Source: Candidatus Thorarchaeota archaeon (GTDB taxonomy: Archaea > Asgardarchaeota > Thorarchaeia > Thorarchaeales > Thorarchaeaceae). From it: a DNA stretch of 64,000 nucleotides. Positions 1-49,735 of this stretch are shown here, in pieces. Within the stretch, counting starts at the first letter, position 1, and each line of letters starts with the position of its first letter. The stretch lies in assembly GCA_030612005.1 (NCBI GenBank), contig JAUWOU010000002.1:915-64914 (forward strand), written 5' to 3'. Position numbers and translations under genes: made by a program. Under the pieces are notes generated by a model that was not told the DNA's origin, made no database searches, and saw only the letters and a list, made by a program, of their open reading frames with translations.

Positions 1-72
1 ACGATACCTTGGGATCTTGACGGAAATGGTTGGCTCAATGGCGCCGACTTCATCTGCTACTTTGTTATCCAC

Positions 73-1281
73 GTGGACGGACTTGGCATCTATGAAAACA
101 TTACAATTGAAACACCAGTGACTGTACTTCAACCTCTTGAGGTCAATCTGCAAGTCCCCTCTCTAACTTATAGTGATCAATCTACACTCAACCTTCAACT
201 GTATCCTCTATATGATTCCTCATTCACGGAGGGTCTAGACCTCACAATTACGCTCTATGTTTCAAATGACAACACTACTTGGGTGTCCATTGGTGAGTTC
301 ATCACTACTACTTCAGGCTGGCAAAGTATAGACTGGACCTGCACAGACTCAGGCATGCTCTTCTTCAAGGTCGAAGCAGTGAGTACTGAACTTTACACTG
401 AGAGTATCGGCTATGCGAACTCAGCGGCAATGAAGGAAATAACAGTATTGACAATAGAAGGTGTTGGAAACTTCATATATAGTGATCAAGGTGTACTTGT
501 AGCCCTGCTTTCAACTGATGATGGTGAACCCCTTTCTGACTACTCTGTATACCTAGAGATAATGGATGGGACATGGGTAAGCATAGGTTCAGGCCTTACA
601 AACGAGTCTGGTCATGTAAGTATCCTCTGGACACCCATGCTTTCAGCTGGTACTTATTCTATACAGATACGCATGTCACTTGCTGGTTCACAGTACTACC
701 TCACACCGGATAATGCAGTGGGAATAATTACAGTAGGTAAGGAATCCACTGTGGTTAGTATTGATTCTGCAACAGCAGCTCAAGGGTATGTACGTACAAG
801 AGTCACTGACGATGATGGTAATCCTATTGTCAGTATTCAAGTTCATTTCTATGTTGGTAGTAATCATGAATACCGAGGGTCTGGAATCACTGATAATGAT
901 GGATATACGCGTTTGAATATCACTTTGAACAATGATGAAACATTGGAAGCTGTAGTCAATGAGGATGACTTCTACTATGGTTCTATTGAACAGGTTACAG
1001 TTGCATTACCACTCGATCTTATGTTCATTATCTCTATATTGAGCGCTATCTGTCTCGTTGTAACTCCAATAGCTGTAGGTCGAAAAGTCATTCGTGGAAG
1101 AAGAGCATCAAGTCCACCATCTGTATCACCCGAGGTCAGTAAAGCATTGGAAGCGGAACGTGATAGTATTCCAGAAAGAGTTCGTGAGCATTCTGAAAAA
1201 CGGCTTGCTGAACTTGATGGTATAGGAATAGATAGCGGAGAAACCACCGAAACTCTATCAATTGATGATGACAGTACATGA
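73..1281 (+). CDS. Cell-surface protein with beta-sandwich (Ig/carboxypeptidase-regulatory-like) repeats and a C-terminal TM anchor followed by a charged cytoplasmic tail. The true start may lie upstream of the window.
   Basis: The protein is Thr/Ser/Val-rich with a repetitive beta-strand pattern (e.g. GTYSIQIRM, VRTRVTDDDGNPI). A hydrophobic helix (LMFIISILSAICLVVTPIAV) is followed by RKVIRGRR. No specific family was recognised. Confidence 0.45.
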   Translation: MDGLGIYENITIETPVTVLQPLEVNLQVPSLTYSDQSTLNLQLYPLYDSSFTEGLDLTITLYVSNDNTTWVSIGEFITTTSGWQSIDWTCTDSGMLFFKVEAVSTELYTESIGYANSAAMKEITVLTIEGVGNFIYSDQGVLVALLSTDDGEPLSDYSVYLEIMDGTWVSIGSGLTNESGHVSILWTPMLSAGTYSIQIRMSLAGSQYYLTPDNAVGIITVGKESTVVSIDSATAAQGYVRTRVTDDDGNPIVSIQVHFYVGSNHEYRGSGITDNDGYTRLNITLNNDETLEAVVNEDDFYYGSIEQVTVALPLDLMFIISILSAICLVVTPIAVGRKVIRGRRASSPPSVSPEVSKALEAERDSIPERVREHSEKRLAELDGIGIDSGETTETLSIDDDST

Positions 1282-6575: not shown

Positions 6576-7307
6576 TCACACCTTGAGTCCAATACCCTTG
6601 ACTGTAATCTCGTAGGGAATCACATCCATCGAGTGCATGGTCTCTCGCATTTTGACAATACGAAGTTTCCTACTTACAGTCATATCCTTTTCATCATAAC
6701 CTAATCTGATTACTCCATGTGACGCATAGCGTTCTACTCCTACTCCTGCCTGATCTAACTCTGAAGTAAGAATAGTTGTTAGGGAGAGACGAGTAAGGAC
6801 TGCGGTTAGACTGAGAACACCATTTCTTCGCTCGGTTCCTTCCATTCCATCAAGAAGTGCTGAAACTGGATCAATCACTAAACGCTGTGCATTTATCTCT
6901 TCTTTAGCTTCGGTTATTAATCGGGTCACTTCTTCAATACTGAACTTGCCTATTGGTACAGCAAGCTCAAGATTGGGTTTTAGTCCAAGTCGACCAGAAA
7001 ATGCATCGATGATTTTGAGTTGTTTAAGATCCATTAATCGTTGAAGATTCCATCCAAAGGCAGAGGCCTCTCTCATCACATCAGTCGGACTCTCATCTAG
7101 ACATACAAGAATTGCTGGTTCAGGGTCTTTTGGATTCTCAAGAATTCCAGCAATGAGAAAGTGTAATGATAGTATTGTCTTACCTGTTCCTGGAAGTCCT
7201 TCAACAAGAGTTGTGCGTCCTCTTGGAAATCCCCCTAATAACATCTCATTCAATTCTTTGATTCCGGTGCTACATCTATCCGTCTGTTTCAATGGTTTCA
7301 CCTTCAT
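6576..7307 (-). CDS. KaiC-like / RadA-like single-domain RecA-superfamily ATPase
   Basis: N-terminus GIKELNEMLLGGFPRGRTTLVEGLPGTGKTILSLHFL carries Walker A GLPGTGKT. Walker B-like ILVCLDE. About 240 aa, typical of archaeal KaiC-like proteins. Confidence 0.8.
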   Translation of the reverse strand: MKVKPLKQTDRCSTGIKELNEMLLGGFPRGRTTLVEGLPGTGKTILSLHFLIAGILENPKDPEPAILVCLDESPTDVMREASAFGWNLQRLMDLKQLKIIDAFSGRLGLKPNLELAVPIGKFSIEEVTRLITEAKEEINAQRLVIDPVSALLDGMEGTERRNGVLSLTAVLTRLSLTTILTSELDQAGVGVERYASHGVIRLGYDEKDMTVSRKLRIVKMRETMHSMDVIPYEITVKGIGLKV

Positions 7308-7893
7308 TTGTTATAGTTGGGTGTTTGAGTAAGTGCCACTTATGACTGAACTTTCCATTGTCTGATTCTCTTGTAACGTCAATGTAGTTGGTGGCAATAT
7401 ACTTCAGAGTAGCAAGACCTCGGTCAGAATGTACTCCCTTTGCTACAAATGCCAAAAATCGAACCTTTGAGAAGTCCTTAGCAATAATACGTAAACATCG
7501 ACTGATCTCTTCATCTGTAACCCCTTGGGCTACCATATCAGAAGGAGACCACCACAACCACCATGATGCTTTGATTGACTCAGCTAGCTTTCCTAGGCGA
7601 TTAAGAACTCCTTTTGTATCTGCAGGATTCTCTAAAAAGTTTTCACTATCATAATCACTCACACGTTGGCGAAGTGAATCTCGCGCAGTGGGTTCATGCC
7701 TAGTGGCGTCAATGAGAGTTGTGTTTTCTATATCAGTGTCTATTGGTTTGGAGTGGATAATGGCTTGAGAATCTTCCCCGATATCATCACGTATTTGCTT
7801 TAGCACCACATACTCTGCTTCAATTGGAAAACTGATGATACTTAGGCCACTGGTTCCAAACCATTTGTTCAATGGGATTGTAGTAATCTTCAA
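7276..7893 (-). CDS. Hypothetical protein (205 aa), translationally coupled between the HTH regulator and the KaiC-like ATPase
   Basis: Overlaps the upstream gene by 4 nt (7890-7893) and the downstream gene by 32 nt. No family recognised. Confidence 0.5.
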   Translation of the reverse strand: MKITTIPLNKWFGTSGLSIISFPIEAEYVVLKQIRDDIGEDSQAIIHSKPIDTDIENTTLIDATRHEPTARDSLRQRVSDYDSENFLENPADTKGVLNRLGKLAESIKASWWLWWSPSDMVAQGVTDEEISRCLRIIAKDFSKVRFLAFVAKGVHSDRGLATLKYIATNYIDVTRESDNGKFSHKWHLLKHPTITNEGETIETDG

Positions 7894-8435
7894 CTCCTCC
7901 TTCCTGTTTCTGTAGAAATAGTCGATTCGGAATCATCTATTGATGAAGATTGGCTATACATAGGAATACCATGGACCTGATCAAGAAGATGGGCAGTGAC
8001 AGAATCCCTTGCCATGTTTTGTTTACGAGAAATGGTAGTCTTCAATGTGTCAATATCTGTTGTCATTGTGATACAGTTTACCTGTAGCTCGTTCTGAATT
8101 TGATACACATAGACTGTTAGAGGTACATGTCCAACACCAGTCTTGAGAAAATCTATGAGGCCCTTGATGGTTGATTCCAATTCAGTCTGAAACTGGTATA
8201 GATTCGAATCAATGAGCACTTGAACTAGATATGGTTTCCCGAATATTGAAGGAATAACCTCGGGGATATATCCCAACACAAGACCATCCTCTTCCAACTT
8301 CCTGGTACGATACAGGGCTGTAGATTTGGGGATGTCCAATGCACGACCTAATGCAGCTGGACTACTTTTCACGGAGTTTCGCAATGAGAGAAGTGTAGCT
8401 GTCCAATCACCAATTGTCTTCTTCTGTTGACCCAA
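7890..8435 (-). CDS. Lrp/AsnC-like winged-HTH transcriptional regulator, first gene of the operon
   Basis: SPAALGRALDIPKSTALYRTRKLEEDGLVLGYIPEV matches the AsnC-type HTH pattern (LA..vGlS.st...Rv.rLee.GvI.gY). It is followed by a YLVQVLID region resembling a RAM-like domain. Confidence 0.6.
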   Translation of the reverse strand: MGQQKKTIGDWTATLLSLRNSVKSSPAALGRALDIPKSTALYRTRKLEEDGLVLGYIPEVIPSIFGKPYLVQVLIDSNLYQFQTELESTIKGLIDFLKTGVGHVPLTVYVYQIQNELQVNCITMTTDIDTLKTTISRKQNMARDSVTAHLLDQVHGIPMYSQSSSIDDSESTISTETGRRS

Positions 8436-8450
8436 TTTGAACCCTCAATA

Positions 8451-8518
8451 TTGTCCATTGTTCAATTCCATATAAACTCAGTTGTCCATTGTTCAACTCG
8501 AATTGTCCATTGTTCCAA
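8451..8518. promoter_or_regulatory. Three direct repeats TTGTCCATTGTTCAA (8451-8465, 8482-8496, 8504-8518; the third is TTGTCCATTGTTCCA) bracketing a TATAAA element (8471-8476), in the divergent intergenic region between the HTH-regulator operon (-) and the membrane-protein gene at 8575 (+)
   Basis: The repeats are exact 15-mers read directly from the sequence. The TATA is about 36-41 bp upstream of the ATG at 8435. This is a likely operator for the adjacent Lrp-like regulator. Confidence 0.5.
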
Positions 8519-8903: not shown

Positions 8904-9584
8904 ATGTTAAGAATGCGCTTACGCATTGCCCACCACTCCCCTCTTTTTTTGAGGGTTATGTTTGCAATATCAATGGTCCTTCTTGTTAGCAGTATCACAC
9001 TCTGTTCAGCTCAGGAAGTAAGTGACGATATTCCATGCATAATTCTAGCCAAACCAGGGGAATTGTATGAGTTGGAGTTGTATCAGCTTGGAAATGACAC
9101 TCAGCATACTATCATTATCAGCTTTAACTTTGAGAATGAAAGTGCACACAGGTTAGAAGTGCAAGTTCCATACAATGGTAATTATGACTCAGCATCCGAA
9201 ATATATTGCGTAAATGACGACTCAGGGCTACTATTGTGCACGATAAAGTATGTAGGGATTGAAACTGTACTTCTTGGGGAAGAGCGAGCCAAGCTTGAGG
9301 TAGACAGTTCAGACTACCAAGCACGCTTAGTTGGTGTGCATTTGTCCGAGTCTTCGTCTTCAAGAGATATAGCGATTCCAAAGTCCTTTGGGATCATTCT
9401 TGCTCTGTGCAGTCTATTGCCATTCTTCCTACTGGCCCCTGATGCAATAACAGACTTGCAGGCACAACTGGAAGTAGAAGCAGCATCGAAAGGAGTGTAT
9501 GGACGGATTCTTGCTCTGCTACTCCCACTTCTAACAATCGGTTTGACTTTTTGGCTTTTGGAGAGTTTGAAAATATTCGGGTGA
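8904..9584 (+). CDS. Secreted protein with a signal peptide and a C-terminal hydrophobic region
   Basis: N-terminus MLRMRLRIAHHSPLFLRVMFAISMVLLVSSITLCSAQE. C-terminus ILALCSLLPFFLLAP...ILALLLPLLTIGLTFWLL. Confidence 0.45.
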   Translation: MLRMRLRIAHHSPLFLRVMFAISMVLLVSSITLCSAQEVSDDIPCIILAKPGELYELELYQLGNDTQHTIIISFNFENESAHRLEVQVPYNGNYDSASEIYCVNDDSGLLLCTIKYVGIETVLLGEERAKLEVDSSDYQARLVGVHLSESSSSRDIAIPKSFGIILALCSLLPFFLLAPDAITDLQAQLEVEAASKGVYGRILALLLPLLTIGLTFWLLESLKIFG

Positions 9585-10414
9585 TGAACATGACAGCAAC
9601 TACACACAAGGGATTGAAACAACGTATAGCGCATTATTATGCGAAAAAAGACGCAGAAGCGGATAAAGGATCAGAAGCGGATAAAGAACGGAAAAGGGAA
9701 CTGAAGAGGAACTGGGATCAGTCAGGAGGTTCCTTGAAAGGTTGGATGAACAAATTCACTGGAGGTCTTGATCTTCCATTCAAATCTATAGCCATCTTTG
9801 CAGGTAGTTGGATGCTTTTGGAGATTGGTTGGCCTCTCTTGATAATATTTGGAGTGGCAACCGCTGGAAACGTGTGGAGTATTGCAACCGTAATTCCATG
9901 TCTATTCATTGCAGTATATGTCAATATCATGGTTAGTGGAATGAACATGATTCGCAGCATAATCACACAATTGGGGGATCGGCGGGACAATCTGGTGAAG
10001 GCATTATTTCGAGGATACTTTTGGAGCCTCTTGTCAATTGGGCTCATTCTGATAGTCCATGAATATTTCCATACCACTATGCCAATGCTGTTCTTTATAC
10101 CCATCTTTTATCTCATACCACTCCAAGTTCTTGGAACCACAGTCCCGTTTCCTCTATTACTTGGAATAAGTGGATTGTACATGGATCTCGCCGTTACAAT
10201 CATTGTGTATGCCATTGGGATAACTGGCAGTGCCATTGGTGGCATTGAGATTCTGCGTACCCTGCTGGACAATTCTCGACAACGTGGTACATATGGTGCG
10301 ATTTTCGGTGTGTTACTTCTAGCTGTGTTCCCAGTGGTGAACATCTACTTCTCACTGGTATTTCTAACGACTACTATGGATCTTTTTGGGAGGTGTGTGT
10401 CCTTTGGCGCTTGA
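9551..10414 (+). CDS. Polytopic membrane protein with about 6-7 TM helices
   Basis: Multiple hydrophobic helices throughout. Overlaps the upstream gene by 34 nt and the downstream ATPase gene by 29 nt, indicating translational coupling. Size and topology are comparable to CedA. Confidence 0.5.
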   Translation: MAFGEFENIRVMNMTATTHKGLKQRIAHYYAKKDAEADKGSEADKERKRELKRNWDQSGGSLKGWMNKFTGGLDLPFKSIAIFAGSWMLLEIGWPLLIIFGVATAGNVWSIATVIPCLFIAVYVNIMVSGMNMIRSIITQLGDRRDNLVKALFRGYFWSLLSIGLILIVHEYFHTTMPMLFFIPIFYLIPLQVLGTTVPFPLLLGISGLYMDLAVTIIVYAIGITGSAIGGIEILRTLLDNSRQRGTYGAIFGVLLLAVFPVVNIYFSLVFLTTTMDLFGRCVSFGA

Positions 10415-13187
10415 TCCGATTGCCCTGCTGAGCTTGATAGTTCCTCTCTTAGTCGTCTTTGGATTCAGTATATTGGCCATGACTATGATCCATCTTGGAT
10501 TATCCGCAAGTGGTAATCGTTTCGCTATGGAGATTACCTGCTTCTTGGGTATGGCAGTGTTCTATGGAACTGAGATAGTCCTAGGCATAACTTCGCTAGA
10601 ACTGACTCTATCGATGCTACTACTGATTACTCCGGTTATGGTTATCGAGGCTTTCAGGCCTTCAAACGAACGTAAGGGCAACAAGCCTCAACTAGTTAAG
10701 ATTGAAGGTGGAACAGACAGGCTTGCTAAAGAAGTCCTATGCTTCGCACATGGTGATGGATATGTAGGCCTTGCAGCAATCCGGATCAAAGGCATTCCGT
10801 TACAGAATGAACGACGGAACAATAAGCATGAGGAGAATGAGGATTTCAAATGGCTATACCCATTTTGGGAAGACAGCAAGAAATCCAATGGCGTATTCAC
10901 TCTGGAAGCAAAGTTTGAGAAGGGGCTTGCTGACCTCCGTTTCTTCACGATCAGTCACGACAAGGACTTCAAACAAGCAGTGGAAAAGACAGACAGATCA
11001 AGACAGATTGCAGAAACTTGGCTCACACGTATTGAGTACGACTATGAGGTTGTATCTTCTGATGAACTATGGAATGTATATCGTGAACTGGACTATGGCT
11101 CATTGCGCGCGACTTCTATGCCGGATGTGGTACAATCAGAGGATGATGGGTATCTTAGTGGACTCTCTATTGAACATCTACCAGATAGTCTATCGAGTAA
11201 CTGGGGCGAAGTGCTTCAGCAGTTCCTAAGAAGCCGTCTTTCTGGACATGCTCTTCTCTCCTTTTCCTCAGGACCTGTTCCCAAGTTGCATGAACGGGCA
11301 GGTGAGAGCAGAGAGGACTCAAAAGTACAAACGAGAACTCCTTTCCGTGTTGAAGACCACAAACTTCGAAAAACGTACAAACAGATGGCAGAGGTTGCAG
11401 CATGTGAGGAAACAGGCGCATTTCGGGTAGGGACAGCAGTCTTGCTCCGTGGTGGAACAGCTGAAGATGTTGAGTATGCTGTGAAGCAAACAGAAGCTGT
11501 TATTCAGGGAGTATGGGGCGGAGTGAAAACTACTAACCTATCAGGTGGTCGTTTACGACATAATTGGACCAAATTCCTACTGCGTAATTACATTGGCAAA
11601 TCTACTTCTGTAAGTGGCGCACGACTGACCGGATTATTACAGATCTACGAAGCCATGCCTGGTGTTCCAAATCATATAGTACCACCTGCTTTTGCGATTC
11701 CTATTCGTCATACTTCAATTGATTCGGTCACTTTCGGTCAAATCCTTGAAAGAGGTAAGACGACTGCTCAAGAGTATAGTATTCCCATTAATTCATTCTG
11801 TCTTCATACGGGAATTTATGGCAACCCTGGAAGCGGTAAGACCAATACAGGATTGGAACTCACCCATCAGGTTTACCAACATGGAATTCCATTTCTTGCT
11901 ATCGTTCCAGCCAAAACTGAGTGGAGAATGCTATCAGCATACATTCCAGAGCTACGGATCTTTACTGCTGGTGATGATTCTACTTCACCATTCCGATACA
12001 ATTTCTTCGATGTTCCACCGGGAGTTCCTATTCAGACACACATCAACAACATTACACTATGTTTCATAGCAAATTGGCCAACAGAGGGAATTCTCACTGA
12101 ACATATCACGAAGATATTCAGACGAACCTATACCAATGCAGGCTGGAACTTGCTCACGAACGAGCGAGGCAGTCCCATTCTACTGAATGACTTGTACTCC
12201 GCAATGGAAGAGGTCGCAAACGAACTAAGGTATGGGGCTCGCTTGAAACAAGACTTTGTGGGAGCCCTTACTGCAAGGTTTGAGTCCCTTTTGGATGATC
12301 CTGTATTGTCTGTCATGCTAAACACTAGACATGGGATAACAATACCCGAATTGTTGAGTAATCCGACAATTCTAGAGCTTCGTCATCTTCCTGATACTCA
12401 AAGAGCACTAATAACGAGCCTGATCATGGTGGCAGTGACGGAGTATCTTGAAGCTCAGGAGCCTTCTATCAATCAAGAGTTACGTCATTTACTAGTCTTG
12501 GAGGAAGCTCACCACGTTCTGAAACGTGTTGGGAATGGATACGGCATAAATGAGGGTCATTCATCCCAGCAGCAGGCAATCAACACCATCGTTCAACTCC
12601 TTCGTGAGGCACGCGGTCTCGGCTTGGGTGTGGTACTGATCGACCAGTTACCGGGAAGTCTGGCTGATGCTGCAGTAAAGCTTCCAGGTATCACGATGAT
12701 CCACTCACTCAAGGATGCACGAGAGAGACTTCTGGTGGGGGGTCAGGCAAACTTGAATGATGCGCAACTCCTGCACATAGGCTCTCTGAAATGTGGAGAA
12801 GTAGTCATCCATCAAGCCTTTGAAGGCCCAGCGGTACTTGCTCAAGTGTTTCAATTCCGTAGAAAACACGCAGCCGAACCTTGGACTGACAGACGAGTAG
12901 CAGACATGATGACGCCTTTCTTCATTGCAAACCCACATCTCCGAAGTCAGAACCTTCCCATGATACGACGGTGGGAAGCTGATCCCGTAGTACTTGACAA
13001 TCTCAAATTTCTGACAGTATCGCTAGATTTCAGAAAGGCATACATAGAATGTCTTGTCCAAGGGCAGGAATATGCAGACGCATACGTCTTGGGGTTAGTA
13101 CAGGAACTCGTTCCCAACTTCACAGAAGCCGCCCACTACTGCAATTGTCTAGTTGACCATCTTGGGGAGGTTGAGAGCAGTGGATGA
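10386..13187 (+). CDS. Membrane-anchored HerA/FtsK/VirB4-superfamily P-loop ATPase (CedB/TedB-like architecture)
   Basis: N-terminal ~90 aa contain 3-4 TM helices. Walker A GIYGNPGSGKTN is encoded at about 11825-11860. Walker B of HerA type (hhhhEEAH) is LLVLEEAHHVL, encoded at about 12490-12520. Confidence 0.7.
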   Translation: MGGVCPLALDPIALLSLIVPLLVVFGFSILAMTMIHLGLSASGNRFAMEITCFLGMAVFYGTEIVLGITSLELTLSMLLLITPVMVIEAFRPSNERKGNKPQLVKIEGGTDRLAKEVLCFAHGDGYVGLAAIRIKGIPLQNERRNNKHEENEDFKWLYPFWEDSKKSNGVFTLEAKFEKGLADLRFFTISHDKDFKQAVEKTDRSRQIAETWLTRIEYDYEVVSSDELWNVYRELDYGSLRATSMPDVVQSEDDGYLSGLSIEHLPDSLSSNWGEVLQQFLRSRLSGHALLSFSSGPVPKLHERAGESREDSKVQTRTPFRVEDHKLRKTYKQMAEVAACEETGAFRVGTAVLLRGGTAEDVEYAVKQTEAVIQGVWGGVKTTNLSGGRLRHNWTKFLLRNYIGKSTSVSGARLTGLLQIYEAMPGVPNHIVPPAFAIPIRHTSIDSVTFGQILERGKTTAQEYSIPINSFCLHTGIYGNPGSGKTNTGLELTHQVYQHGIPFLAIVPAKTEWRMLSAYIPELRIFTAGDDSTSPFRYNFFDVPPGVPIQTHINNITLCFIANWPTEGILTEHITKIFRRTYTNAGWNLLTNERGSPILLNDLYSAMEEVANELRYGARLKQDFVGALTARFESLLDDPVLSVMLNTRHGITIPELLSNPTILELRHLPDTQRALITSLIMVAVTEYLEAQEPSINQELRHLLVLEEAHHVLKRVGNGYGINEGHSSQQQAINTIVQLLREARGLGLGVVLIDQLPGSLADAAVKLPGITMIHSLKDARERLLVGGQANLNDAQLLHIGSLKCGEVVIHQAFEGPAVLAQVFQFRRKHAAEPWTDRRVADMMTPFFIANPHLRSQNLPMIRRWEADPVVLDNLKFLTVSLDFRKAYIECLVQGQEYADAYVLGLVQELVPNFTEAAHYCNCLVDHLGEVESSG

Positions 13188-15321
13188 AGGTTCTGACTTC
13201 GCCTCTTCTCCATTGGTTTCTTATTGGTCTGAAACACGGTTAGATATCATTCTTTGGAAGAATGAGAGTGAGTCATATCGCGGTTTCTTAAAGTACAGCA
13301 ATCCCACGGTTTCAGCGGAACTTGAGAATGGAACAACCGTCGTTCCTGATACGAAAGAAGACCTATGCGTAACTATTGAGTATGAAGTCATATTGAAAGA
13401 AACAGGGATAAGTGAACAAAGACCCCTGAAAAGACCAGTCAAGATACTCCTTAACCCAATTGTCACTCAACGTTACAGGTATTTTCCAAACCTTGATGGT
13501 AGAGGGGAATTTATCTTTCCGCCATCAACCAATAGATTCTACTCAAGACTTTTTGTTCTGGATCTTGAAAAATACTATGATGACGACGGTAGTATAGGTG
13601 CTCGTTGTTCCCTTCATCAGTGTCCAAATCAGAAGGATAGACTATGGCTCACAATATCAAACTCAGAAACCGGAGAGATCTACGAAGCCTTCCTCATCCA
13701 CCACTATGAAGGTAACATCTTTTTGATGCCCAATGATGCCCAGTTAGATTTTGCCCTTGCAAAGAGGTATGCAGATGGTGTTCGCAAATCGGACCTGTTC
13801 GATGTTGAAGGGCTCCTGAAAGGGCCACCGCCATCAATGGCCCAGCTAGCGATGTTGGTGCAGGATGTCAATGTACCGAACCTTATGATACATGATACCC
13901 TTGAGAGAACAATCTCACAACTAGTACCTCAGGTGTTTCCTGAAAACATAAGACAAAGCCTTTGCGTTTTCCTTGGCCTCCTTGCTCTTGATAAGATTGA
14001 ACAACGCAAGGACCCTGATGATCTTTCGGTCGAGTTCGCCCCTTGGAGAATGGTCAGTTCTCTCTACAATAGTCACTTACTTTACACTATTCTAAAAATC
14101 GAATCACCTTCATACGTTCGACTCATGCATCTAGCTGCACGAAGGGAGATGCAAGGAATCGGTAGAACTGTTAGGGAAGATATTGGTAAGAGTGAGTGGC
14201 TCATGTTCTGGCATCTACTTCACGATGGAGTGAAGAATTTCCGTGATGAGATACCTATTCTTCTGGATATCGTAGAAAGATCGAATCAGTTGGGTACGAT
14301 TACAGGCAAAATCATACCCTCCAAGTCTACGGGGCAACGTTCACGTAAGGCTTGGGTGACACGGTTAGTATGTAACTCTTCAGTTACTAGCCCCTCACTG
14401 ATTTGTACTCCCAATCTAAAGGCTCTTGGACTTGATCAGATTCTCTATCTGGGGTCCGCCTATTGCTGGCCTCACAGGCACATGTCATATATCACAAGTT
14501 TAGGAAGATGGCAGGTTAATAATCCACCACATCTACAACACATGATCCTCCCCTCGAAGGCTTCCGAACGAATCAGACGTCTGATTCCGTCAGTGTTGAA
14601 TGTTACTTGGAGTAGTAGGACTTTCAATCCTGACCTGTATACTAATCAGTGGAATGTGCGACCAGATGATATCTTGAGTTCCTTAGGTCGGACTAGACCA
14701 CTAACCACTCTGAGAAAGAAGTACTATACTCCTTCCCTCTGTGATGTTGATTATATTACTCCAACTGAAGCCTTGGTCATGGATATCATTACACGCTCAT
14801 TTCACATGATGTATTTCAAAGAACGACCATATTTGTTCGAGAAAATGTTCGGGATTGAGAAGCAACTTTTCATTCGTACTGCGCGTTCGTTGGCCAAGAG
14901 AGGGGTTCTGGAGCCACAATATATCCTAATCCCACTACTTCCTACACTGGCTACCATTGCCTGTGGAGAACCAAAGAATATCGTTTCTCTTGCTGATGCA
15001 TTTCTGTCGGGATCTCCTACATGCACAGCCTACATCTGTAACGAGGGAAACGATGCAGTCTTTCTCTCTCGAATACCACCCTCAGACCTAGGAGAACTTG
15101 CTAGGTCGCTCCCACAAGCAGGACAAGAACATGGGACTACCATTCGCTGTTTTAGACCTCACACCCTTAGAAGTTACAATCATTCGCTATACCAGAGATT
15201 ACTACGAGAGGATGGCACATGGGATGATGATGTGCGTGGATTCCTCTCTCAGGCACGAGGGAAGAGAGTTGAGATTGCAAATGTAATTGATAGCATGAAA
15301 ATTAAGAGTTGTATAACATGA
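13153..15321 (+). CDS. Large hypothetical protein (722 aa), translationally coupled to the ATPase
   Basis: Start overlaps the ATPase stop by 35 nt. No recognisable motifs by eye. Confidence 0.5.
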   Translation: MTILGRLRAVDEGSDFASSPLVSYWSETRLDIILWKNESESYRGFLKYSNPTVSAELENGTTVVPDTKEDLCVTIEYEVILKETGISEQRPLKRPVKILLNPIVTQRYRYFPNLDGRGEFIFPPSTNRFYSRLFVLDLEKYYDDDGSIGARCSLHQCPNQKDRLWLTISNSETGEIYEAFLIHHYEGNIFLMPNDAQLDFALAKRYADGVRKSDLFDVEGLLKGPPPSMAQLAMLVQDVNVPNLMIHDTLERTISQLVPQVFPENIRQSLCVFLGLLALDKIEQRKDPDDLSVEFAPWRMVSSLYNSHLLYTILKIESPSYVRLMHLAARREMQGIGRTVREDIGKSEWLMFWHLLHDGVKNFRDEIPILLDIVERSNQLGTITGKIIPSKSTGQRSRKAWVTRLVCNSSVTSPSLICTPNLKALGLDQILYLGSAYCWPHRHMSYITSLGRWQVNNPPHLQHMILPSKASERIRRLIPSVLNVTWSSRTFNPDLYTNQWNVRPDDILSSLGRTRPLTTLRKKYYTPSLCDVDYITPTEALVMDIITRSFHMMYFKERPYLFEKMFGIEKQLFIRTARSLAKRGVLEPQYILIPLLPTLATIACGEPKNIVSLADAFLSGSPTCTAYICNEGNDAVFLSRIPPSDLGELARSLPQAGQEHGTTIRCFRPHTLRSYNHSLYQRLLREDGTWDDDVRGFLSQARGKRVEIANVIDSMKIKSCIT

Positions 15322-16733
15322 GAGATATCGAAGAACTTTCAGATGATGAATCTCACATTGAAGATAGAGGAACAAAGGTCAAAGACTTCGAGAATCGTTC
15401 TCTGACTACTGAGGAACGTGATAAGATCATTCGCGAGTACAATGCTGAACATTCCATACATCGAATAATTCCTGATGCGGTCGATACACTAGACCAATCT
15501 GATAGGATTGTAACCGATTCAGAAAATCTTAATGATACTGATGAAGATACCGACTCTAGTTCTGAAAAAAAGAAGATAGATTCTGAAGAGGTTTGCAGAT
15601 TGTACATTGAGGATGGGCTGAGTCTAAAAGAAGTAGGAAAAATTTTCGGCTTCAAAACTGGTGCACCAATAAAACGAATATTAGAGGCTGAGGGGCTAGA
15701 ATTGCGATCAGCTGGAGCTCAAAAAACTGATATTAACTCTGAAGAGGTTTGCAGACTATATCTTGAGGAAGAACTGAGTCTGGATAAGATAGGAGAACAT
15801 TTTGGTCTTAAATCCCGTAGCCCTGTCAAACGAATCCTAGAAACTGCGGGAGTGGAAATACGCCCAGTCGGTTTTCAGAAGATAGATATTGACCATGATG
15901 AGGTCTATAGATTGTACTTTGAGGAGCGCAAGGATCTCAAAGAGATTGCTGACCACTTCGATTGCAAATCCACAGACCCCATCCATCGTATTTTTGATGA
16001 GCAGGGTTGGAAGACAAGGTATCAGGAAACCTATGAGAAGGATTTCGAACCTGAAGAGGTCTTTAGATTATACAATGAAGATGGATTGTCTTTGAGAAAG
16101 ATTGGGGAACATTTTGGGGTTTCAATTGGTCCTATCCGTAGAATCTTCGAAGAACATAACATGGAGTATGGTCAGGAGATTCAGATTGATCCAGAAGTTA
16201 TCCATAAGCTGTACTTTGATGAAGGATTGTCAAAAGAAGAAGTATGTGAGCGTCTTGGTGTTTCAAAGAGACCAATTAATCGTATAATTGAAGAGCAAGA
16301 TCTATTGAGGAACAGGAGTGGGTTGATTGACATTGATGATTTTTCTAGATTATACTATGTAGAAGAATTGACAATGACAGAAATATCCAAACATTTTGAA
16401 GTTTCACAAAATACTCTCAAGCGATTCCTCAAAAAGCACAAGTTGGAAGAAAGAACTACTAGAACTGTAAGAGAGATACGCGATGAGATGTTTGGTAAAG
16501 ATTGTGTATCCTGTCGAAGACCAAAAGAGGTTATTCATAAAAAGGATGGAGAGCCGCATGAGCGTTATAGAACTTGGACTAAGAAGGCATTACGAACAGT
16601 GAATCCAAACGAATGGGTGGCATTATGTGAACCCTGTCACAGGTTAACCCATTCTCTTATGAAATCATTTAGTTGTGAATGGGATGACATTGAAAAAATA
16701 CTAACAGAACTCGCAAAAGAATGGTTATCCTAG
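15309..16733 (+). CDS. Protein with six tandem HTH repeats (sigma-70 region-4-like) and a C-terminal HNH endonuclease motif
   Basis: Repeats of about 50 aa such as EEVCRLYIEDGLSLKEVGKIFGFKTGAPIKRILEAEGLELR. C-terminal CVSCRRPKEVIHKKDGEPHERYRTWTKKALRTVNPNEWVALCEPCHRLTH has HNH-like C-x2-C...H...N...C-x2-C-H spacing. Overlaps the upstream gene by 13 nt. Confidence 0.65.
   Translation: MYNMRDIEELSDDESHIEDRGTKVKDFENRSLTTEERDKIIREYNAEHSIHRIIPDAVDTLDQSDRIVTDSENLNDTDEDTDSSSEKKKIDSEEVCRLYIEDGLSLKEVGKIFGFKTGAPIKRILEAEGLELRSAGAQKTDINSEEVCRLYLEEELSLDKIGEHFGLKSRSPVKRILETAGVEIRPVGFQKIDIDHDEVYRLYFEERKDLKEIADHFDCKSTDPIHRIFDEQGWKTRYQETYEKDFEPEEVFRLYNEDGLSLRKIGEHFGVSIGPIRRIFEEHNMEYGQEIQIDPEVIHKLYFDEGLSKEEVCERLGVSKRPINRIIEEQDLLRNRSGLIDIDDFSRLYYVEELTMTEISKHFEVSQNTLKRFLKKHKLEERTTRTVREIRDEMFGKDCVSCRRPKEVIHKKDGEPHERYRTWTKKALRTVNPNEWVALCEPCHRLTHSLMKSFSCEWDDIEKILTELAKEWLS
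15585..16440 (+). repeat. In-frame tandem repeat array of about 150-156 bp units within the CDS, encoding the HTH repeats
   Basis: GAAGAGGTTTGCAGAYTRTA recurs at 15585 and 15741 at nucleotide level. The protein repeats are more diverged further 3'. Confidence 0.6.
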
Positions 16734-16766
16734 CTGTCGTGTCGAAACGGTTTTAAGCACGCTCCT

Positions 16767-17447
16767 GTGGTTCGAACAAGTTACTCGATGTATATAGGAG
16801 ATACCATCTTGGCCACAACAATTGATGATGAAGAAATCGACCTACTCATAGAGATGGATCGCTACCTCGCAGCCGGCTGCCACATCGGCACCCAAGTCAA
16901 AACGCAGGATATGGAGCCCTTTGTATACAGACAACGCCCAATCGGCCTATACGTTCTTGATGTTCGTAAGACTGATGAGAGGGTAAGAGTAGCTGGAAAG
17001 TTCTTGGCTCGATTTGATCCTTCCAAGATTGTAGTGGTATCTGGTCGTGTCTATGGTAAAAGACCAGTTGAAACCTTTTCCTACTATATTGGAGCCAGTG
17101 CTTTTACAGAGAGATTTGTTCCTGGTACCCTAACCAATCCTAATATTGCAGGACCACGAACGTACATTGAACCAGATGTAGTGGTACTTACTGACCCCCG
17201 TACGGACCAGCAGGCGCTTAATGAGGCTGCAAGAATCGGAGTACCAGTAGTTGCATTATGTGATACTGATAACGTAACAACAAATATCGATCTTGTTATT
17301 CCTACGAACAACCGTGGTCGGAAATCACTTGCACTAGTATACTATCTTCTAACTACTCAGGTCTTGAAAGAGAGGGGCGATATGCCTGAAGATGGTGAGC
17401 CCGTATACACGCCAGATGACTTTGAACCACAAGTACAGAGGTTCTGA
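16767..17447 (+). CDS. rps2: 30S ribosomal protein S2 (uS2)
   Basis: [40 protein letters not shown] and [32 protein letters not shown] match conserved uS2 blocks. Confidence 0.85.
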
Positions 17448-17451
17448 TAGT

Positions 17452-17865
17452 TCATCCTTCAATTAGAGTAACGACGCCATTATCGGCGTCAACCTCTATC
17501 TTTTGTCCATTCTGAATTTTTCCAATATCAATCTGATCTACTGCAGGTATCTCTGAAATAATACAACCCACAGCAACAACCGGGTCCATTATTTTATTGA
17601 CAATTGCAAGAGGAGCTTTTTCTGCTTTCTTCAACGCATACAAAACATATGACCCTACTGTAGAACCTTTTCCGCTGGGAAAAACAAGGACTTTTCCTGA
17701 TACAGACTTTCCCTCTAGATGATGTCCCTTTTCTACTATCTCACCAGTTTCAGGATCACAACCACCGTAGAATGATATGTCATCTCCAGTAACTAGAGCT
17801 TCACCAGTTACTTTTCCCTTGAAGATTTTCCTTCCTTGCATTATGATATTGCCTCCTTGATACAC
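17452..17865 (-). CDS. AcnX-type small subunit (DUF126 family), candidate phosphomevalonate dehydratase small subunit
   Basis: About 137 aa with GEALVTGDDISFYGGCDPETGEI. Overlaps the large-subunit gene by 25 nt. Sits in an operon with MVK and a UbiD-like gene. Confidence 0.65.
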   Translation of the reverse strand: MYQGGNIIMQGRKIFKGKVTGEALVTGDDISFYGGCDPETGEIVEKGHHLEGKSVSGKVLVFPSGKGSTVGSYVLYALKKAEKAPLAIVNKIMDPVVAVGCIISEIPAVDQIDIGKIQNGQKIEVDADNGVVTLIEG

Positions 17866-19037
17866 TGTTCGATTGTCCGTATCTCTGTCTTGAATTTGTT
17901 CTTTCCACGCGCATAGAAACAGGCTTTTGCTGAGTCAGTCATTAATCCGGTAAATTTACCTTTCAAAGGTGCCACCGCACAGCATGCGTCCGCGACCAGA
18001 AAGGCACCTGCATTCTCAATTATATCATAGTATCCCATCTTGATTGCTAGATCTTTGGTAGGCTTTGCTGTTGTAATCCAAACAGTTTTTCCATCTGCAA
18101 CTTTCTTTCCATCAAGCATTACCGCTATTTCTGCAATCTCCTTTATACTAGCATGTGGACAACCTACGCTGATGAAATCAATTTTAACCTCTTCATCATC
18201 GAGATCTACCCGAGCTGCGTGTAGGTCATCTTGAGTCACAACTTCAGTCTTATCAGGGATAGGGGTCTTGTTAGGTGTAATTCCCTCCATATGGAAGATT
18301 GCCACACCGCCATAAGTAGCAACTGATGCACAGAATGATTTGAGCTCTTCAGTGCTTGCTTTCTCCACTCCCGTGATGTATGGAATGGTCTTACCAGTTC
18401 TTGTACCAATGACATGTCCAAGAAGTCCAAAATCATCGGTATCCTTCAACTCTGCTTGGACATCATACTTGACCTGAGCTACCCTGTTTTCATCAAGGTG
18501 AAAGCCATACTCTGCAGTTTTTCCGGTAAGTGCGGTTGCCAACGCGCTAGGGCCACCTTCTCTGTTTGTTAATGCACCAATCACAGAGTTTGCAAAACAT
18601 ACAGCAGATGATTCAGCCCACGCAATGTGCTCTCCATAGTGTGGTAAATTACCAATGAGATATGGCGTACAAGTACAGGTTGTAATCACTCCCATTCTCT
18701 CAAAAGCATCAACCACACGCTCTTGGTTCACTGCAAAATCTTCACTTATACCATGTTTCTTCCATTCTAGCATATCCATTCCAGCAGGATTGAGGGTGGT
18801 TAGAACTCGAACCCGTCCATCTTCTGCTATCTCCGAGAGATACTCTAGACCTGCCTCTCCCAGATTGTGATACGAAACACCTGCTATCTGTACGCTAGCC
18901 ACTGGAATCAGTCTTTTTGCACCATAAATCTCACCTAAGGTAGTGATGATTTCCATGGCTTTCTGAGTTGCTTTTCCATGCTTACCTTCAAGCATTTCTT
19001 TCTCTTCTGGGGTTAGAATGAGTCCCATTTCACTCAC
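17841..19037 (-). CDS. AcnX-type large subunit (DUF521 family), candidate phosphomevalonate dehydratase large subunit
   Basis: N-terminus MLEGKHGKATQKAMEIITTLGEIYGAKRLIPVASVQIAG and cysteine-containing blocks, about 400 aa. Gene context is MVK/UbiD-like. Confidence 0.7.
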   Translation of the reverse strand: MSEMGLILTPEEKEMLEGKHGKATQKAMEIITTLGEIYGAKRLIPVASVQIAGVSYHNLGEAGLEYLSEIAEDGRVRVLTTLNPAGMDMLEWKKHGISEDFAVNQERVVDAFERMGVITTCTCTPYLIGNLPHYGEHIAWAESSAVCFANSVIGALTNREGGPSALATALTGKTAEYGFHLDENRVAQVKYDVQAELKDTDDFGLLGHVIGTRTGKTIPYITGVEKASTEELKSFCASVATYGGVAIFHMEGITPNKTPIPDKTEVVTQDDLHAARVDLDDEEVKIDFISVGCPHASIKEIAEIAVMLDGKKVADGKTVWITTAKPTKDLAIKMGYYDIIENAGAFLVADACCAVAPLKGKFTGLMTDSAKACFYARGKNKFKTEIRTIEQCIKEAIS

Positions 19038-20337
19038 CTAGATACTTTTTCAAATCGACTTCTGGGAACTTTGCTTTGTCAAAACTCTTACCCTTGGTAT
19101 CCAATGTTTTAGTGCAATCAAAACCACACTTGGTAGTCATTTTTGTACCAGGTTCCGCACTGGGATCTAACGAGCTACCTGGTTCTTGGTCCTTGATTAA
19201 GAGATCAACATCGGCCTGAAATCGAGTGGCCATTGCCCATTCTCTCTCTTCATCAGAGTAGATGTCGATATCGTCATCATATACCCAGATGTGTTTAGCA
19301 CTTTTATGACCTGAAAAAGCTCCTTCAAGGGCTTGGATTCCATCATCATCATTCTTTTTCTTGATTTTTATTGCTACATGAAGCCAACTGGCTCCACCAG
19401 GAGTAATGTTGACATCTAAGACTTCAATGCCTCTTTCCTTGATTTTCCTGAAAACAGTTGGTTCTCTTGGCATCCCCATCAGAATTTTGTGCTCATCCCT
19501 TCCTGGTAAGAGACCCTGCCATATTGCAGTCTTTCTGTGGGTAATCTTCTTCACTTCGAAGATTGGTTCTTGACGAATCACATCAACGGTTTCCGTTAAG
19601 TCAATGAATGGTCCTTCATCGTGCTTATCCCCCAGAATAATTCTTCCTTCAAGAACAAATTCAGAATCTGCTGGAATCATCAGATCAACAGTCTTAGCTC
19701 GTGTAACAGAAATTTTTCGAAGCGCATTTGCTATCTCTAATTCATTTATCCCAGTTTCTACCGATGTTGCCGCAGCAATCAATACTTCTGGAGTGTTTCC
19801 AATACAGAAAGCAACATCAACTTCTCCATTTCGTTCCAAGAATTTATGGAAATCTCTCCCTTTGACAACTCTTACTACCATTTTGTTTTTGCTTATCTGC
19901 ATGGCTCTGTGAAAATCAAGATTTTGACCAAATTCAGGATCTGCTGCTACTACAACTCCGGATGAGATATAGGGTCCTCCATCGACCTTGTTATGTATTA
20001 GAATTGGCAACTTGTCAAGATCTACTTGGTTTTCAATCACTTCTTGACATGGGACTTTGTCAGTCTGATCTGGTTCACTTCGTTTTTCTATTGCTCTTGT
20101 AAGAGTTGGAATTATCTCTTCTGTGGTTATCCCAAAATAGTCCGCAATCTGCCTCTTATTGCAGAACAAGTTACCTGTAACTCGAAATTCACTTTCCTTA
20201 ACATTCTCAAAAAATACAGGCTGTGGTTCGAGGCTCTTCAATACACCAGCAATCTCAAGACTCTTTGAGATTCTTTCAGTGATAGTAGTAATCTTTCCAT
20301 TCTGTTGTAAATCTTTGATATATTCCTCAAGTATCAT
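19030..20337 (-). CDS. UbiD-family decarboxylase, candidate trans-anhydromevalonate-5-phosphate decarboxylase
   Basis: N-terminal PVFFENVKESEFRVTGNLF matches the UbiD family block (LFENVKGSDFPVVGNLF). Overlaps the AcnX gene by 8 nt and lies immediately downstream of mvk. Confidence 0.7.
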   Translation of the reverse strand: MILEEYIKDLQQNGKITTITERISKSLEIAGVLKSLEPQPVFFENVKESEFRVTGNLFCNKRQIADYFGITTEEIIPTLTRAIEKRSEPDQTDKVPCQEVIENQVDLDKLPILIHNKVDGGPYISSGVVVAADPEFGQNLDFHRAMQISKNKMVVRVVKGRDFHKFLERNGEVDVAFCIGNTPEVLIAAATSVETGINELEIANALRKISVTRAKTVDLMIPADSEFVLEGRIILGDKHDEGPFIDLTETVDVIRQEPIFEVKKITHRKTAIWQGLLPGRDEHKILMGMPREPTVFRKIKERGIEVLDVNITPGGASWLHVAIKIKKKNDDDGIQALEGAFSGHKSAKHIWVYDDDIDIYSDEEREWAMATRFQADVDLLIKDQEPGSSLDPSAEPGTKMTTKCGFDCTKTLDTKGKSFDKAKFPEVDLKKYLGE

Positions 20338-20346
20338 GAAACCACC

Positions 20347-21300
20347 TCAAAGTCCGAATGATGTTAACCATACACCAGCAGCTCTTGCTTTTTCAAGAGC
20401 TTCTGCTATTTGTTTGGCTGTAGCCTCATTAGGTGCAAGAGCAATCATATTCCCCCCGCGGCCGGTTCCTGTCATTTTCGCACCTATTGCACCATTCTCA
20501 CGTGCCACTATTACCAAATTATCTAATTCTTCACATGAAACAGTTAATTCTTGAAGCAACTCGTGATTCTTATTCATTAATTTGCCAACTTTTGGTAAGT
20601 CGAATTGAATCAGTGCATCTTTTCCCTCGTGAACAACTTGGTTGTATTTTTCAGAGATTGAATCAAACCATTTTGGGTCGGCTTCTTTTCTTATTTTCAC
20701 AGCTCCCACAACCACCGTAGTACTTGCAGTAATACCAGTTGAGGCAATTACAAGGTGTACAGCTTTTTTGAGTTTCAATCTCTCGAATTTTGGAGGTCCA
20801 CCACTTAAATCCCGTTCAAACCAGACTAATCCTCCATATGTTGATACAGTATTATCTAGTCCAGAAGGAGTTCCATGATACCCTTTCTCTCCTTCATAGG
20901 CGGCTTCATTGACTTGTTCATCATTAAGCCCAAGTTTGAACTCATCATTCAGAGATCTTACAATTGCCACACAACTGGCTGCACTTGCCCCTATTCCTGA
21001 GGCACAGACAAGGTCCCCCTCAAGATCAATCTGAAATCCCATTCTTGTTGTATCGATATTGAGATGTTTCAGTATATTCTCCAGTGAGGTTTTCTGCTCT
21101 TCATACTTTTTCTCTTTGTAACCTGGCATTGCAGGTCGATTGTCAACCAGAGTATGTCCAAAGGAGCGTACCCGTGTTAATTTTGCAGTTGTTACAGATG
21201 ATATTCCTGCTGCTATAGCTGGAAATCCATAGACTACAAAGTGTTCTCCAAACAGAATAGCTTTACCTTTGCCTGAACCGGTCCCCATGATTTCTCTCAC
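20347..21300 (-). CDS. mvk: Mevalonate kinase (GHMP kinase family)
   Basis: GKAILFGEHFVVYG matches the MVK N-terminal motif. GHMP ATP motif ASGIGASAAS is present. Confidence 0.8.
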   Translation of the reverse strand: MREIMGTGSGKGKAILFGEHFVVYGFPAIAAGISSVTTAKLTRVRSFGHTLVDNRPAMPGYKEKKYEEQKTSLENILKHLNIDTTRMGFQIDLEGDLVCASGIGASAASCVAIVRSLNDEFKLGLNDEQVNEAAYEGEKGYHGTPSGLDNTVSTYGGLVWFERDLSGGPPKFERLKLKKAVHLVIASTGITASTTVVVGAVKIRKEADPKWFDSISEKYNQVVHEGKDALIQFDLPKVGKLMNKNHELLQELTVSCEELDNLVIVARENGAIGAKMTGTGRGGNMIALAPNEATAKQIAEALEKARAAGVWLTSFGL

Positions 21301-49570: not shown

Positions 49571-49735
49571 ATGAATGACAGGCTTGAAAGAACTCAGCTC
49601 TATGATTGGCATAAAGAACATGGTGACGTTATCCCGTTTGCTGGTTGGGAGATGCCAGTACGGTATACAACCATCAGAGAAGAGCACATGGCTGTCAGGG
49701 ATAGTTGTGGTGCTTTCGACGTCAGTCATTTCATT
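49571..49735 (+). pseudogene. Fragment homologous to the first ~54 codons of aminomethyltransferase GcvT; similarity is lost thereafter
   Basis: [54 protein letters not shown] versus the intact gcvT at 58082 ([49 protein letters not shown]). The rest of the 92-aa ORF is unrelated. Confidence 0.65.

Follow-up and report, generated by a model that had tools for sequence, protein, structure and literature searches.

What can a protein do that carries six consecutive helix-turn-helix (HTH) units and ends in a cluster of cysteines and histidines like that of HNH nucleases? The question is raised by a gene in a stretch of 64,000 nucleotides (the window) from a Candidatus Thorarchaeota contig (JAUWOU010000002.1, positions 915 to 64,914; assembly GCA_030612005.1), whose product is referred to here as the poly-HTH protein. 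Its HTH units resemble region 4 of sigma-70 factors and form an old array. They are joined to a divergent HNH, or His-Me, finger in which the canonical histidine and asparagine have been replaced, and the gene closes an operon that encodes a membrane-anchored HerA/FtsK-type ATPase. We hold the domain assignment with high confidence. More tentatively, we read the product as a modular DNA-reading protein whose HTH array and re-wired His-Me finger serve the ATPase and membrane proteins encoded upstream.

The first in-frame ATG of the open reading frame (ORF), at 15318, overlaps the stop codon (15319-15321) of an upstream ORF of 722 amino acids (aa) in an ATGA arrangement, and the homologs begin at an equivalent MRD or MRE. 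For these reasons the product is most likely 471 aa long and translationally coupled to the upstream gene; a public database protein of 471 aa (P0001) is 100% identical to it. Residue numbers are counted from this ATG throughout. The array is preceded by an acidic, mostly disordered leader (Table 1). In an AlphaFold2 (AF2) model of the full-length protein, built with a 22-sequence alignment, the predicted local distance difference test (pLDDT) of the leader falls below 50 at aa 1-27 and 48-83, and its single conserved helix, LTTEERDKIIREYNAEH, spans aa 31-49. The leader is 56-72% identical to that of the LAGLIDADG-like proteins P0031 and P0035. Pfam holds no family for the isolated N-terminus, and a phmmer search of the PDB with the whole protein returned no match.

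Six helix-turn-helix units in an old array

The six consecutive units, and the consensus that an earlier note made from the sequence had given for them, were recovered with a profile derived from the repeats and independently with Pfam and NCBIfam models. Their periods are 52, 52, 52, 47 and 47 aa. Pfam Sigma70_r4 (PF04545) matches the protein in five stretches (E = 1e-19; 70.2 bits against a cutoff of 24.1), the best of which, aa 247-276, lies within unit 4, and NCBIfam sigma70-ECF matches it in six, with the best (aa 344-374) within unit 6. The Pfam list for the protein includes no sigma family of region 2 or 3, and we regard the protein as no sigma factor because its matches are confined to region-4-like stretches. 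No further copy of the HTH unit or of the C-terminal module is encoded elsewhere in the window.

In the full-length AF2 model every unit consists of three helices of about 10, 7 and 10 residues, with a pLDDT of roughly 78-91. The linkers between the units are of low confidence and the predicted template modelling score (pTM) is 0.27, which indicates that the units would fold independently, as beads on a string with flexible linkers. A Foldseek search with this model matched HTH DNA-binding domains exclusively, among them the AraC-family protein Rns, the bipartite DNA-binding domains of the Mos1, Tc3 and SETMAR transposases, sigma factors, DeoR (37% identity over 46 residues) and the CRISPR-repeat-binding protein Cbp2 (PDB 2lvs); the length and flexibility of the query chain make the E-values weak. 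Structure prediction, which had been suggested as a check, thus gives the repeats an HTH DNA-binding fold, not some non-DNA-binding fold, and their description as three-helix units like sigma-70 region 4 is borne out by Pfam, NCBIfam, AF2 and Foldseek.

The archaeal proteins Cbp1 and Cbp2 offer a comparison. They are described as having two to three imperfect tandem HTH or homeodomain-like units that read repeated DNA (PMC3597662; PMC10883916). The NCBIfam Cbp1 model (NF040595) aligns over two adjacent units of the poly-HTH protein with E = 2e-16 and 60 bits, which is below its cutoff of 140; in contrast to Cbp1 and Cbp2, the poly-HTH protein has six units, preceded by an acidic leader and followed by an HNH-like finger. 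There is no CRISPR array near the gene.

The earlier note had seen a nucleotide tandem repeat beneath the units and took it as a sign of recent in-frame amplification. The repeat is visible only faintly. A repeat search finds 67-nt copies at 15583, 15739, 16051 and 16333 with 61-75% identity, but Tandem Repeats Finder reported nothing on 15000-17000, and nucleotide identity between units (52-59%) equals the background of the global aligner except between units 1 and 2 (65-67%). These two are 55% identical in amino acid sequence, and where they share an amino acid the same codon is used at 14 of 25 positions, against 9.2 expected from codon usage. Their synonymous sites keep almost no residual signal, and the nucleotide likeness of the units is essentially a by-product of protein conservation.

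Recent amplification is contradicted by the orthologs. Within the protein the units are only 20-55% identical to one another, neighbours included, while they are 64-98% identical to the units at the same position in orthologs, although overall identity to those orthologs is only 50-60%. Unit 3, for example, is 64-82% identical to its positional equivalent in close orthologs, and unit 4 reaches 98% in P0003 and P0004. In orthologs with five units a single unit matches both unit 1 and unit 2, and the six-unit orthologs P0002, P0005 and P0015 hold both; for this reason the duplication that gave rise to units 1 and 2 is lineage-specific yet older than the splits from these orthologs, at an overall identity of only 56%. 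The lineages of P0004 and P0008-10 gained an extra unit near the C-terminus instead, and the number of units across the family ranges from 3 to about 10.

An HNH-derived finger with a replaced active site

The C-terminal module contains the cysteine and histidine spacing that had been noticed in the sequence (C396, C399, H407, H414, C437, C440, H441 and H445), of which C396, C399, C437 and C440 make up a Cys4 zinc knuckle. The first strand (beta1) carries H407-K408-K409-D410-G411 and is followed by H414 in an Omega-loop; E432-W433 begin the second strand (beta2), and the helix bears H441 and H445. An AF2 model of the module, made from a 20-sequence alignment, has a pLDDT of 91.9, with strands at module positions 24-27 (VIHK) and 52-55 (WVAL), a helix at 57-70, and a further helix and the first CxxC preceding the strands. 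Foldseek matched this model to Cas5-HNH, IscB, Cap5, GVE2 and McrA with a probability of up to 0.94, and its beta-beta-alpha core matches solved HNH nucleases.

Only "HNH endonuclease" families were matched in PHROGs, with E = 5e-4 for the module in the window and down to 4e-6 for small relatives. Ten small relatives compared with PF01844 gave a best E of 0.16-0.21 (12 bits against a cutoff of 21.4). A tblastn search of phage genomes with the module itself found no match, and with a small relative it found only Pseudomonas phage HNH genes (E = 0.06), which served as a bridge; the nearest annotated phage enzyme is the HNH endonuclease of Pseudomonas phage COT4 (UGL61253.1; OK258139). The COT4-type family was represented by 120 relatives, and PF01844 relatives were gathered as a second comparison set together with the HNH sequence of McrA, checked against PDB 6ghc. 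In profile-profile comparison with hhalign, 218 modules of the family matched the phage HNH family with a probability of 96.5-96.9% (E = 1.7e-10, 65 columns) and the McrA/PF01844 set with 95.9%. Since Foldseek, PHROGs and the profile-profile matches agree, we assign the module to the His-Me/HNH superfamily as a genuine member that has a Cys4 zinc knuckle.

Some likenesses were set aside. Matches of the C-terminal profile to IscB and McrA in the PDB (E about 0.8-1.9) cover the LCxxCH part alone. Residues 392-414 (FG-x-x-C-x2-C-x7-H-K-K-D-G-x-P-H) resemble the core of GATA-3 and GATA-2 (E = 0.22-0.73 against the PDB), and the GATA zinc-finger pattern G-x-E-C-x2-C-G...RDG-x-H (E = 0.22) is below significance; this resemblance was judged to be chance or a convergent treble-clef likeness.

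In colicin E7/E9, Cas9, I-HmuI and T4 endonuclease VII, the second histidine of the HNH doublet is the general base. In the alignments of both HMMER and hhalign, H407 (module H26, conserved in 100% of the 218 modules over which residues were counted) pairs with the first histidine of the phage doublet and K408 (module position 27) with the second. D410 aligns with the conserved aspartate of the phage family and H414, conserved in 99%, with its invariant lysine, so that the phage motif L-E-F-H-H-x-D-P-x2-K is answered by [ILV]-H-[RK]-K-D-G-x2-H. The full signature of the subfamily reads H-[RK]-K-D-G-x2-H ... [ED]-W-x2-L-C-x2-C-H-x3-H. The helix histidines H441 and H445 are conserved in 99% and 93%, and the four knuckle cysteines in 90-99%, with C440 replaced by histidine in 8%. 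H407, H441 and H445 correspond to the three-histidine metal site of colicin DNases. The favoured register fits the hydrophobic periodicity L-x-[ILV]-H and the position of the AF2 strand. Direct comparison with McrA by hhalign gave another register, which places the family's KDG-x-P on the NDGNP of McrA and the McrA doublet on non-conserved columns; it was dropped for its lower score and shorter length and because it contradicts both the strand and the periodicity.

The module and the phage and McrA-type (PF01844) enzymes, the phage ones marked by LEFHHxDPxxK, thus share the Cys4 knuckle, a beta-hairpin, an N-terminal helix that ends in FG-x2-C-x2-C-G and a helix that bears L-C-x2-C-H-x3-H. They differ at the active site, where an HH doublet and Lys82 are invariant in the phage family and the module has arginine or lysine in place of the second histidine and an invariant histidine at the lysine position. 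The inter-strand loop of the module is also different, being longer or helical, the asparagine position holds glutamate or aspartate, and, unlike the phage enzymes, the module is found on Asgard archaeal chromosomes, joined to 3-10 HTH units. Of the label "HNH nuclease" given in the earlier note, the fold, the homology and the Cys4 knuckle stand, while the canonical histidine and asparagine do not. The alternative that the note had allowed for, in which the cluster is a structural zinc ribbon lacking the catalytic residues of HNH, is borne out by half: the canonical residues are replaced, and the fold is that of HNH. Catalysis, if present, would be non-canonical, because the general-base histidine and the asparagine are replaced and the Pfam HNH models are silent.

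Two known proteins frame the choice. PacI has a His-Me finger without the catalytic histidine, but it shares no detectable sequence similarity with the module, lacks HTH arrays, works as a homodimeric restriction enzyme, and uses a substitute tyrosine where a histidine is proposed here. The Smad MH1 domain, like the module, has a His-Me fold with structural zinc and a lost catalytic histidine, and its role is in DNA binding or transcription; it is eukaryotic and without sequence relationship, and the module, in contrast, keeps three helix and strand histidines typical of an active-site metal.

The upstream ATPase operon and the role of the protein

The poly-HTH gene is the last in a run of overlapping genes that starts at 8904. 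Its most informative partner is the 933-aa ATPase, which has four predicted N-terminal transmembrane (TM) helices, a middle domain of about 400 aa of unknown kind, and an ATPase domain with Walker A (GNPGSGKT) and Walker B (LLVLEEAHH) motifs. The ATPase region matches "ser_rich_anae_1" (E = 3e-22), and the orthologs of the protein carry a precomputed Pfam DUF87 annotation. Family members are immediately preceded by a gene for this ATPase in L001-4, L019, L031, L009/10 and L011. The overlapping operon, with the genes for the 226-, 287- and 933-aa proteins and the poly-HTH gene, recurs in L002-4 and L019, and L001 retains the end of the ATPase gene and the poly-HTH gene, with the uS2-AcnX-UbiD-kinase genes downstream. 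The ATPase of L031 is 82% identical to that of the window, and a truncated poly-HTH variant follows it directly. The pairing is conserved over long distances, because in two distant genomes ATPases of only 32-34% identity still directly precede proteins of 781 aa and 1160 aa with many HTH units and two modules. HerA-type ATPases paired with a nuclease partner are a known theme, and a functional partnership between the poly-HTH protein and the ATPase is, in our view, probable.

Pfam, NCBIfam, PADLOC, PHROGs and the PDB gave no match for the 722-aa ORF, which is absent from the orthologous operons and lies between the two genes in this lineage alone. A homolog of 26% identity is found directly upstream of a paralog with 10 HTH units and one module in L021 (2376-4130), and a 31-aa C-terminal remnant precedes P0031 in L032.

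The layout of the ATPase recalls the crenarchaeal DNA import system, in which CedD/CedB, working with CedA/CedE, combine TM segments and an unknown N-terminal domain with a HerA-like ATPase (PMC11868833). The ATPase of the window has a layout similar to that of CedD and polytopic partners like CedA/CedE, but its sequence similarity is far below the membership threshold. No Ced component is a poly-HTH/HNH protein, and neither pilin nor VirB6 homology was shown for the window operon.

In the reading that we tentatively prefer, the six HTH units would jointly contact a long or iterated DNA site, and the finger would bind a metal and nick or grip the DNA. The active-site metal would be held through H407, H441 and H445, as in the histidine triad of colicins, and the single-module protein would most likely be a DNA nickase with a relocated base, for which the invariant Omega-loop H414 is the candidate by analogy to the Omega-loop tyrosine of PacI. 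The protein could then deliver DNA to, or anchor it at, the ATPase and the membrane-channel proteins, following a logic like that of Ced or type IV secretion systems. The parts of this reading differ in strength: metal-dependent nuclease activity of the finger is about an even call, and a role in DNA translocation is doubtful. A bolder version would make the protein the relaxase-like, DNA-nicking and sequence-reading subunit of an undescribed Asgard membrane DNA-transfer apparatus, composed of two channel-type membrane proteins and the TM-anchored HerA/FtsK-type ATPase, with the base moved to the Omega-loop histidine; taken as a whole, we think this version unlikely.

Several observations weigh against the preferred reading. 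At the general-base position the 218 modules have arginine (147), lysine (57) and, once, histidine, so that 204 carry arginine or lysine, and at the asparagine position (module 51) they have glutamate (59%), aspartate (27%), lysine (5%) or asparagine (4%). His-Me groups without the catalytic histidine or a substitute have been classed as inactive DNA binders, with Smad MH1 as an example (Jablonska et al.), and H407, H414, H441 and H445 could form a closed second structural metal site. Pfam finds no family on the 91-aa C-terminus even at E <= 10, and the C-terminal profile has no significant sequence match in the PDB (only E >= 0.2). The ATPase matches NCBIfam CedD weakly (39 bits against a cutoff of 600). 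Its partnership is not universal, because many paralogs (L005-7, L015-18, L020-29) do not adjoin an ATPase gene; P0022, for instance, stands alone between genes for a peptidyl-prolyl isomerase and a proton-translocating pyrophosphatase. No DNA target of the poly-HTH protein was identified.

The same replacements would suit a finger that is catalytically dead and acts as a zinc-stabilised DNA or protein binder, within a multi-HTH transcription factor, a chromatin protein or a DNA-anchoring protein. Such a protein would be comparable to Smad MH1, in which an inactivated His-Me finger has been turned to DNA binding, or to Cbp1, whose tandem HTH units bind repeated DNA. We consider this possible, with some doubt. 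It fits the family-wide loss of the general-base histidine and the asparagine and the classification just cited, the Cbp1 and Cbp2 matches of the array, the chromosomal location of the gene with conserved synteny next to rpsB, and the fact that genomes carry several paralogs while viral contigs carry none. However, the four histidines, one aspartate and one lysine that are nearly invariant around the former active site would be unusual for a decayed one, and the nearest relatives are phage HNH enzymes of the active type. The two-module architectures and the exchange of the module for HNH_3 or LAGLIDADG domains suggest a nuclease role, and a regulator is not typically found translationally coupled at the end of a structural operon. 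The promoter region of the operon points both ways. It contains TTGTCCATTGTTC in three exact copies in direct orientation, which begin at 8451, 8482 and 8503 (intervals of 31 and 21 bp) and lie at 8451-8515, between a divergent winged-HTH gene (7890-8435, - strand) and the gene at 8904 (+ strand). The window holds no other exact copy, and none of 100 shuffles reached the observed count at up to 2 mismatches. The triple repeat is possibly an operator, which would suit a regulator, but it was absent from the 30 loci examined and the orthologous promoters have no shared motif.

An ATPase joined to a nuclease is also a common layout of defence systems, and the HerA-like ATPase might drive the HNH-like effector against viruses or plasmids with the HTH array as DNA sensor, in parallel to the pairings HerA-Sir2, HerA-DUF4297 and HerA-NurA. 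PADLOC gave weak matches of the ATPase to mad8/HerA (E = 1.4e-10) and of one HTH unit to mad1 (E = 4e-7), a type IIG restriction-modification gene adjoins the distant operon in L009, and both the number of repeats and the set of domains change quickly from strain to strain. The PADLOC matches nevertheless cover generic P-loop and HTH regions only and come nowhere near a system definition; the operon lies among housekeeping genes (uS2, mevalonate pathway), the ATPase is anchored in the membrane and has two polytopic membrane proteins as companions, and synteny is stable across species, all of which makes a defence role quite improbable. Least probable, and by our estimate very much so, is a selfish or recently domesticated free-standing modular homing endonuclease of the HNH/GIY-YIG type, whose usual architecture of a nuclease fold with flexible HTH modules is matched here (compare P0033 and P0034, with three HTH units and HNH_3) and which relatives fused to LAGLIDADG-like bodies and signs of locus rearrangement would favour, but the canonical catalytic histidine is absent, the gene is in no intron, intein or virus and shows no sporadic spread, IMG/VR viral contigs yielded no relative of the family, and its operon context and position beside rpsB are conserved across species that are only 50-56% identical.

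HTH arrays, His-Me fingers and HerA/FtsK ATPases are known kinds of parts. New are the signature without canonical histidine and asparagine, its fusion to long HTH arrays, and the conserved pairing with a membrane ATPase in Asgard archaea; no description of this HNH-derived subfamily was found in the literature searched. The subfamily escapes Pfam, and its active-site signature is re-wired yet strictly conserved. If active, the module would be the second natural His-Me finger, after PacI, to work without the strand histidine, and its HTH arrays of 3-10 units would be naturally modular readers of long DNA sites joined to a small nuclease; if inactive, it would be a clean prokaryotic parallel to Smad MH1. 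Should the link to the ATPase be functional, it would point to a system by which the archaeal lineage closest to eukaryotes takes up, exports or processes DNA; from that lineage, to our knowledge, DNA-transfer machinery is essentially unknown.

Table 1. Coordinates of the poly-HTH gene, its domains and the genes of its operon in the window.
Feature	Position	Residues	Strand	Basis
Poly-HTH/HNH-like gene, as ORF	15309..16733		+	ORF listing, translation
Poly-HTH/HNH-like gene, probable ATG to stop	15318..16733	471 aa	+	ORF listing, ATGA overlap, homolog N-termini
Acidic, mostly disordered N-terminal leader	15318..15581	1-88	+	AF2 full-length model
HTH unit 1	15588..15719	91-134	+	unit hidden Markov model (HMM); AF2 helices 89-98, 103-109, 116-124
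HTH unit 2, closest paralog of unit 1	15744..15875	143-186	+	unit HMM
HTH unit 3	15900..16031	195-238	+	unit HMM, AF2
HTH unit 4	16056..16187	247-290	+	unit HMM, AF2
HTH unit 5	16197..16328	294-337	+	unit HMM, AF2
HTH unit 6	16338..16469	341-384	+	unit HMM, AF2
C-terminal divergent HNH/His-Me finger module	16461..16730	382-471	+	
Operon protein, about 3 hydrophobic segments	8904..9584	226 aa	+	hydropathy; 45-50% identity in L002-4, L019
Operon protein, 6 predicted TM segments	9551..10414	287 aa	+	hydropathy; 57-58% identity in L002-4, L019
HerA/FtsK-superfamily (DUF87-like) P-loop ATPase, operon partner	10386..13187	933 aa	+	motifs in translation, TM prediction
Orphan protein between ATPase and poly-HTH genes	13153..15321	722 aa	+	no library match

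Relatives, rearranged loci and neighbouring genes

A HMMER search of 1.84 billion cluster representatives (50% identity) with the module profile found at least 550 proteins at E <= 1e-3. Many of them have HTH arrays followed by two tandem modules, and many others are small single-module proteins of 90-200 aa; among the 145 best, no Pfam HNH annotation occurs in the frequent families. Two tandem modules after long HTH arrays were present in 50 of 168 proteins analysed (about 30%). These proteins (P0036-P0083; L009 8001-10346, L011 8001-11483) reach 1160 aa, and in some of their second modules the last cysteine of the zinc knuckle is a histidine. The named close homologs all come from Candidatus Thorarchaeota, and with one genome per GTDB species we counted 16 loci, all in Thorarchaeota or unclassified archaeal metagenome-assembled genomes and often two to three per genome.

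The small single-module proteins (P0100-P0180; L012 8001-8423) have a basic N-terminus with the motif MPYKD-x-K-x-REYQR-x-W-x2-RKR-x-GL-x-TR. One of them, P0102, is encoded among the housekeeping genes Alba, TruD, Pus10 and L21e and not in a mobile element.

The acidic leader of the poly-HTH protein is shared by the LAGLIDADG-like proteins P0028, P0031 and P0035, the first of which also has HTH units 1-3. The C-terminal 158 aa of P0028 and P0031 are 60-62% identical to a 317-aa ORF of the window (49726-50679, - strand), and P0035 is 26% identical over 606 aa to a 669-aa ORF (31193-33202, - strand). In L031 and L032, loci whose ATPase and GcvH are 82% and 87% identical to those of the window, the poly-HTH gene is apparently truncated and fused to a LAGLIDADG-like body. 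This fusion could be a rearrangement, the insertion of a mobile gene or a chimeric assembly.

Three genes divergent from the operon, at 6576-8435 (- strand), encode a KaiC-like ATPase of 243 aa, an unknown protein of 205 aa and a winged-HTH protein of 181 aa. The PADLOC matches of the winged-HTH protein are limited to the HTH part of Csa3/CARF models. In L002, too, a KaiC-like gene lies upstream. Downstream of the poly-HTH gene, at 16767-21300, a cluster that is syntenic in L001 encodes uS2, the small and large subunits of AcnX, a UbiD-family decarboxylase and a GHMP kinase, a combination that we take to be typical of the archaeal-type mevalonate pathway.

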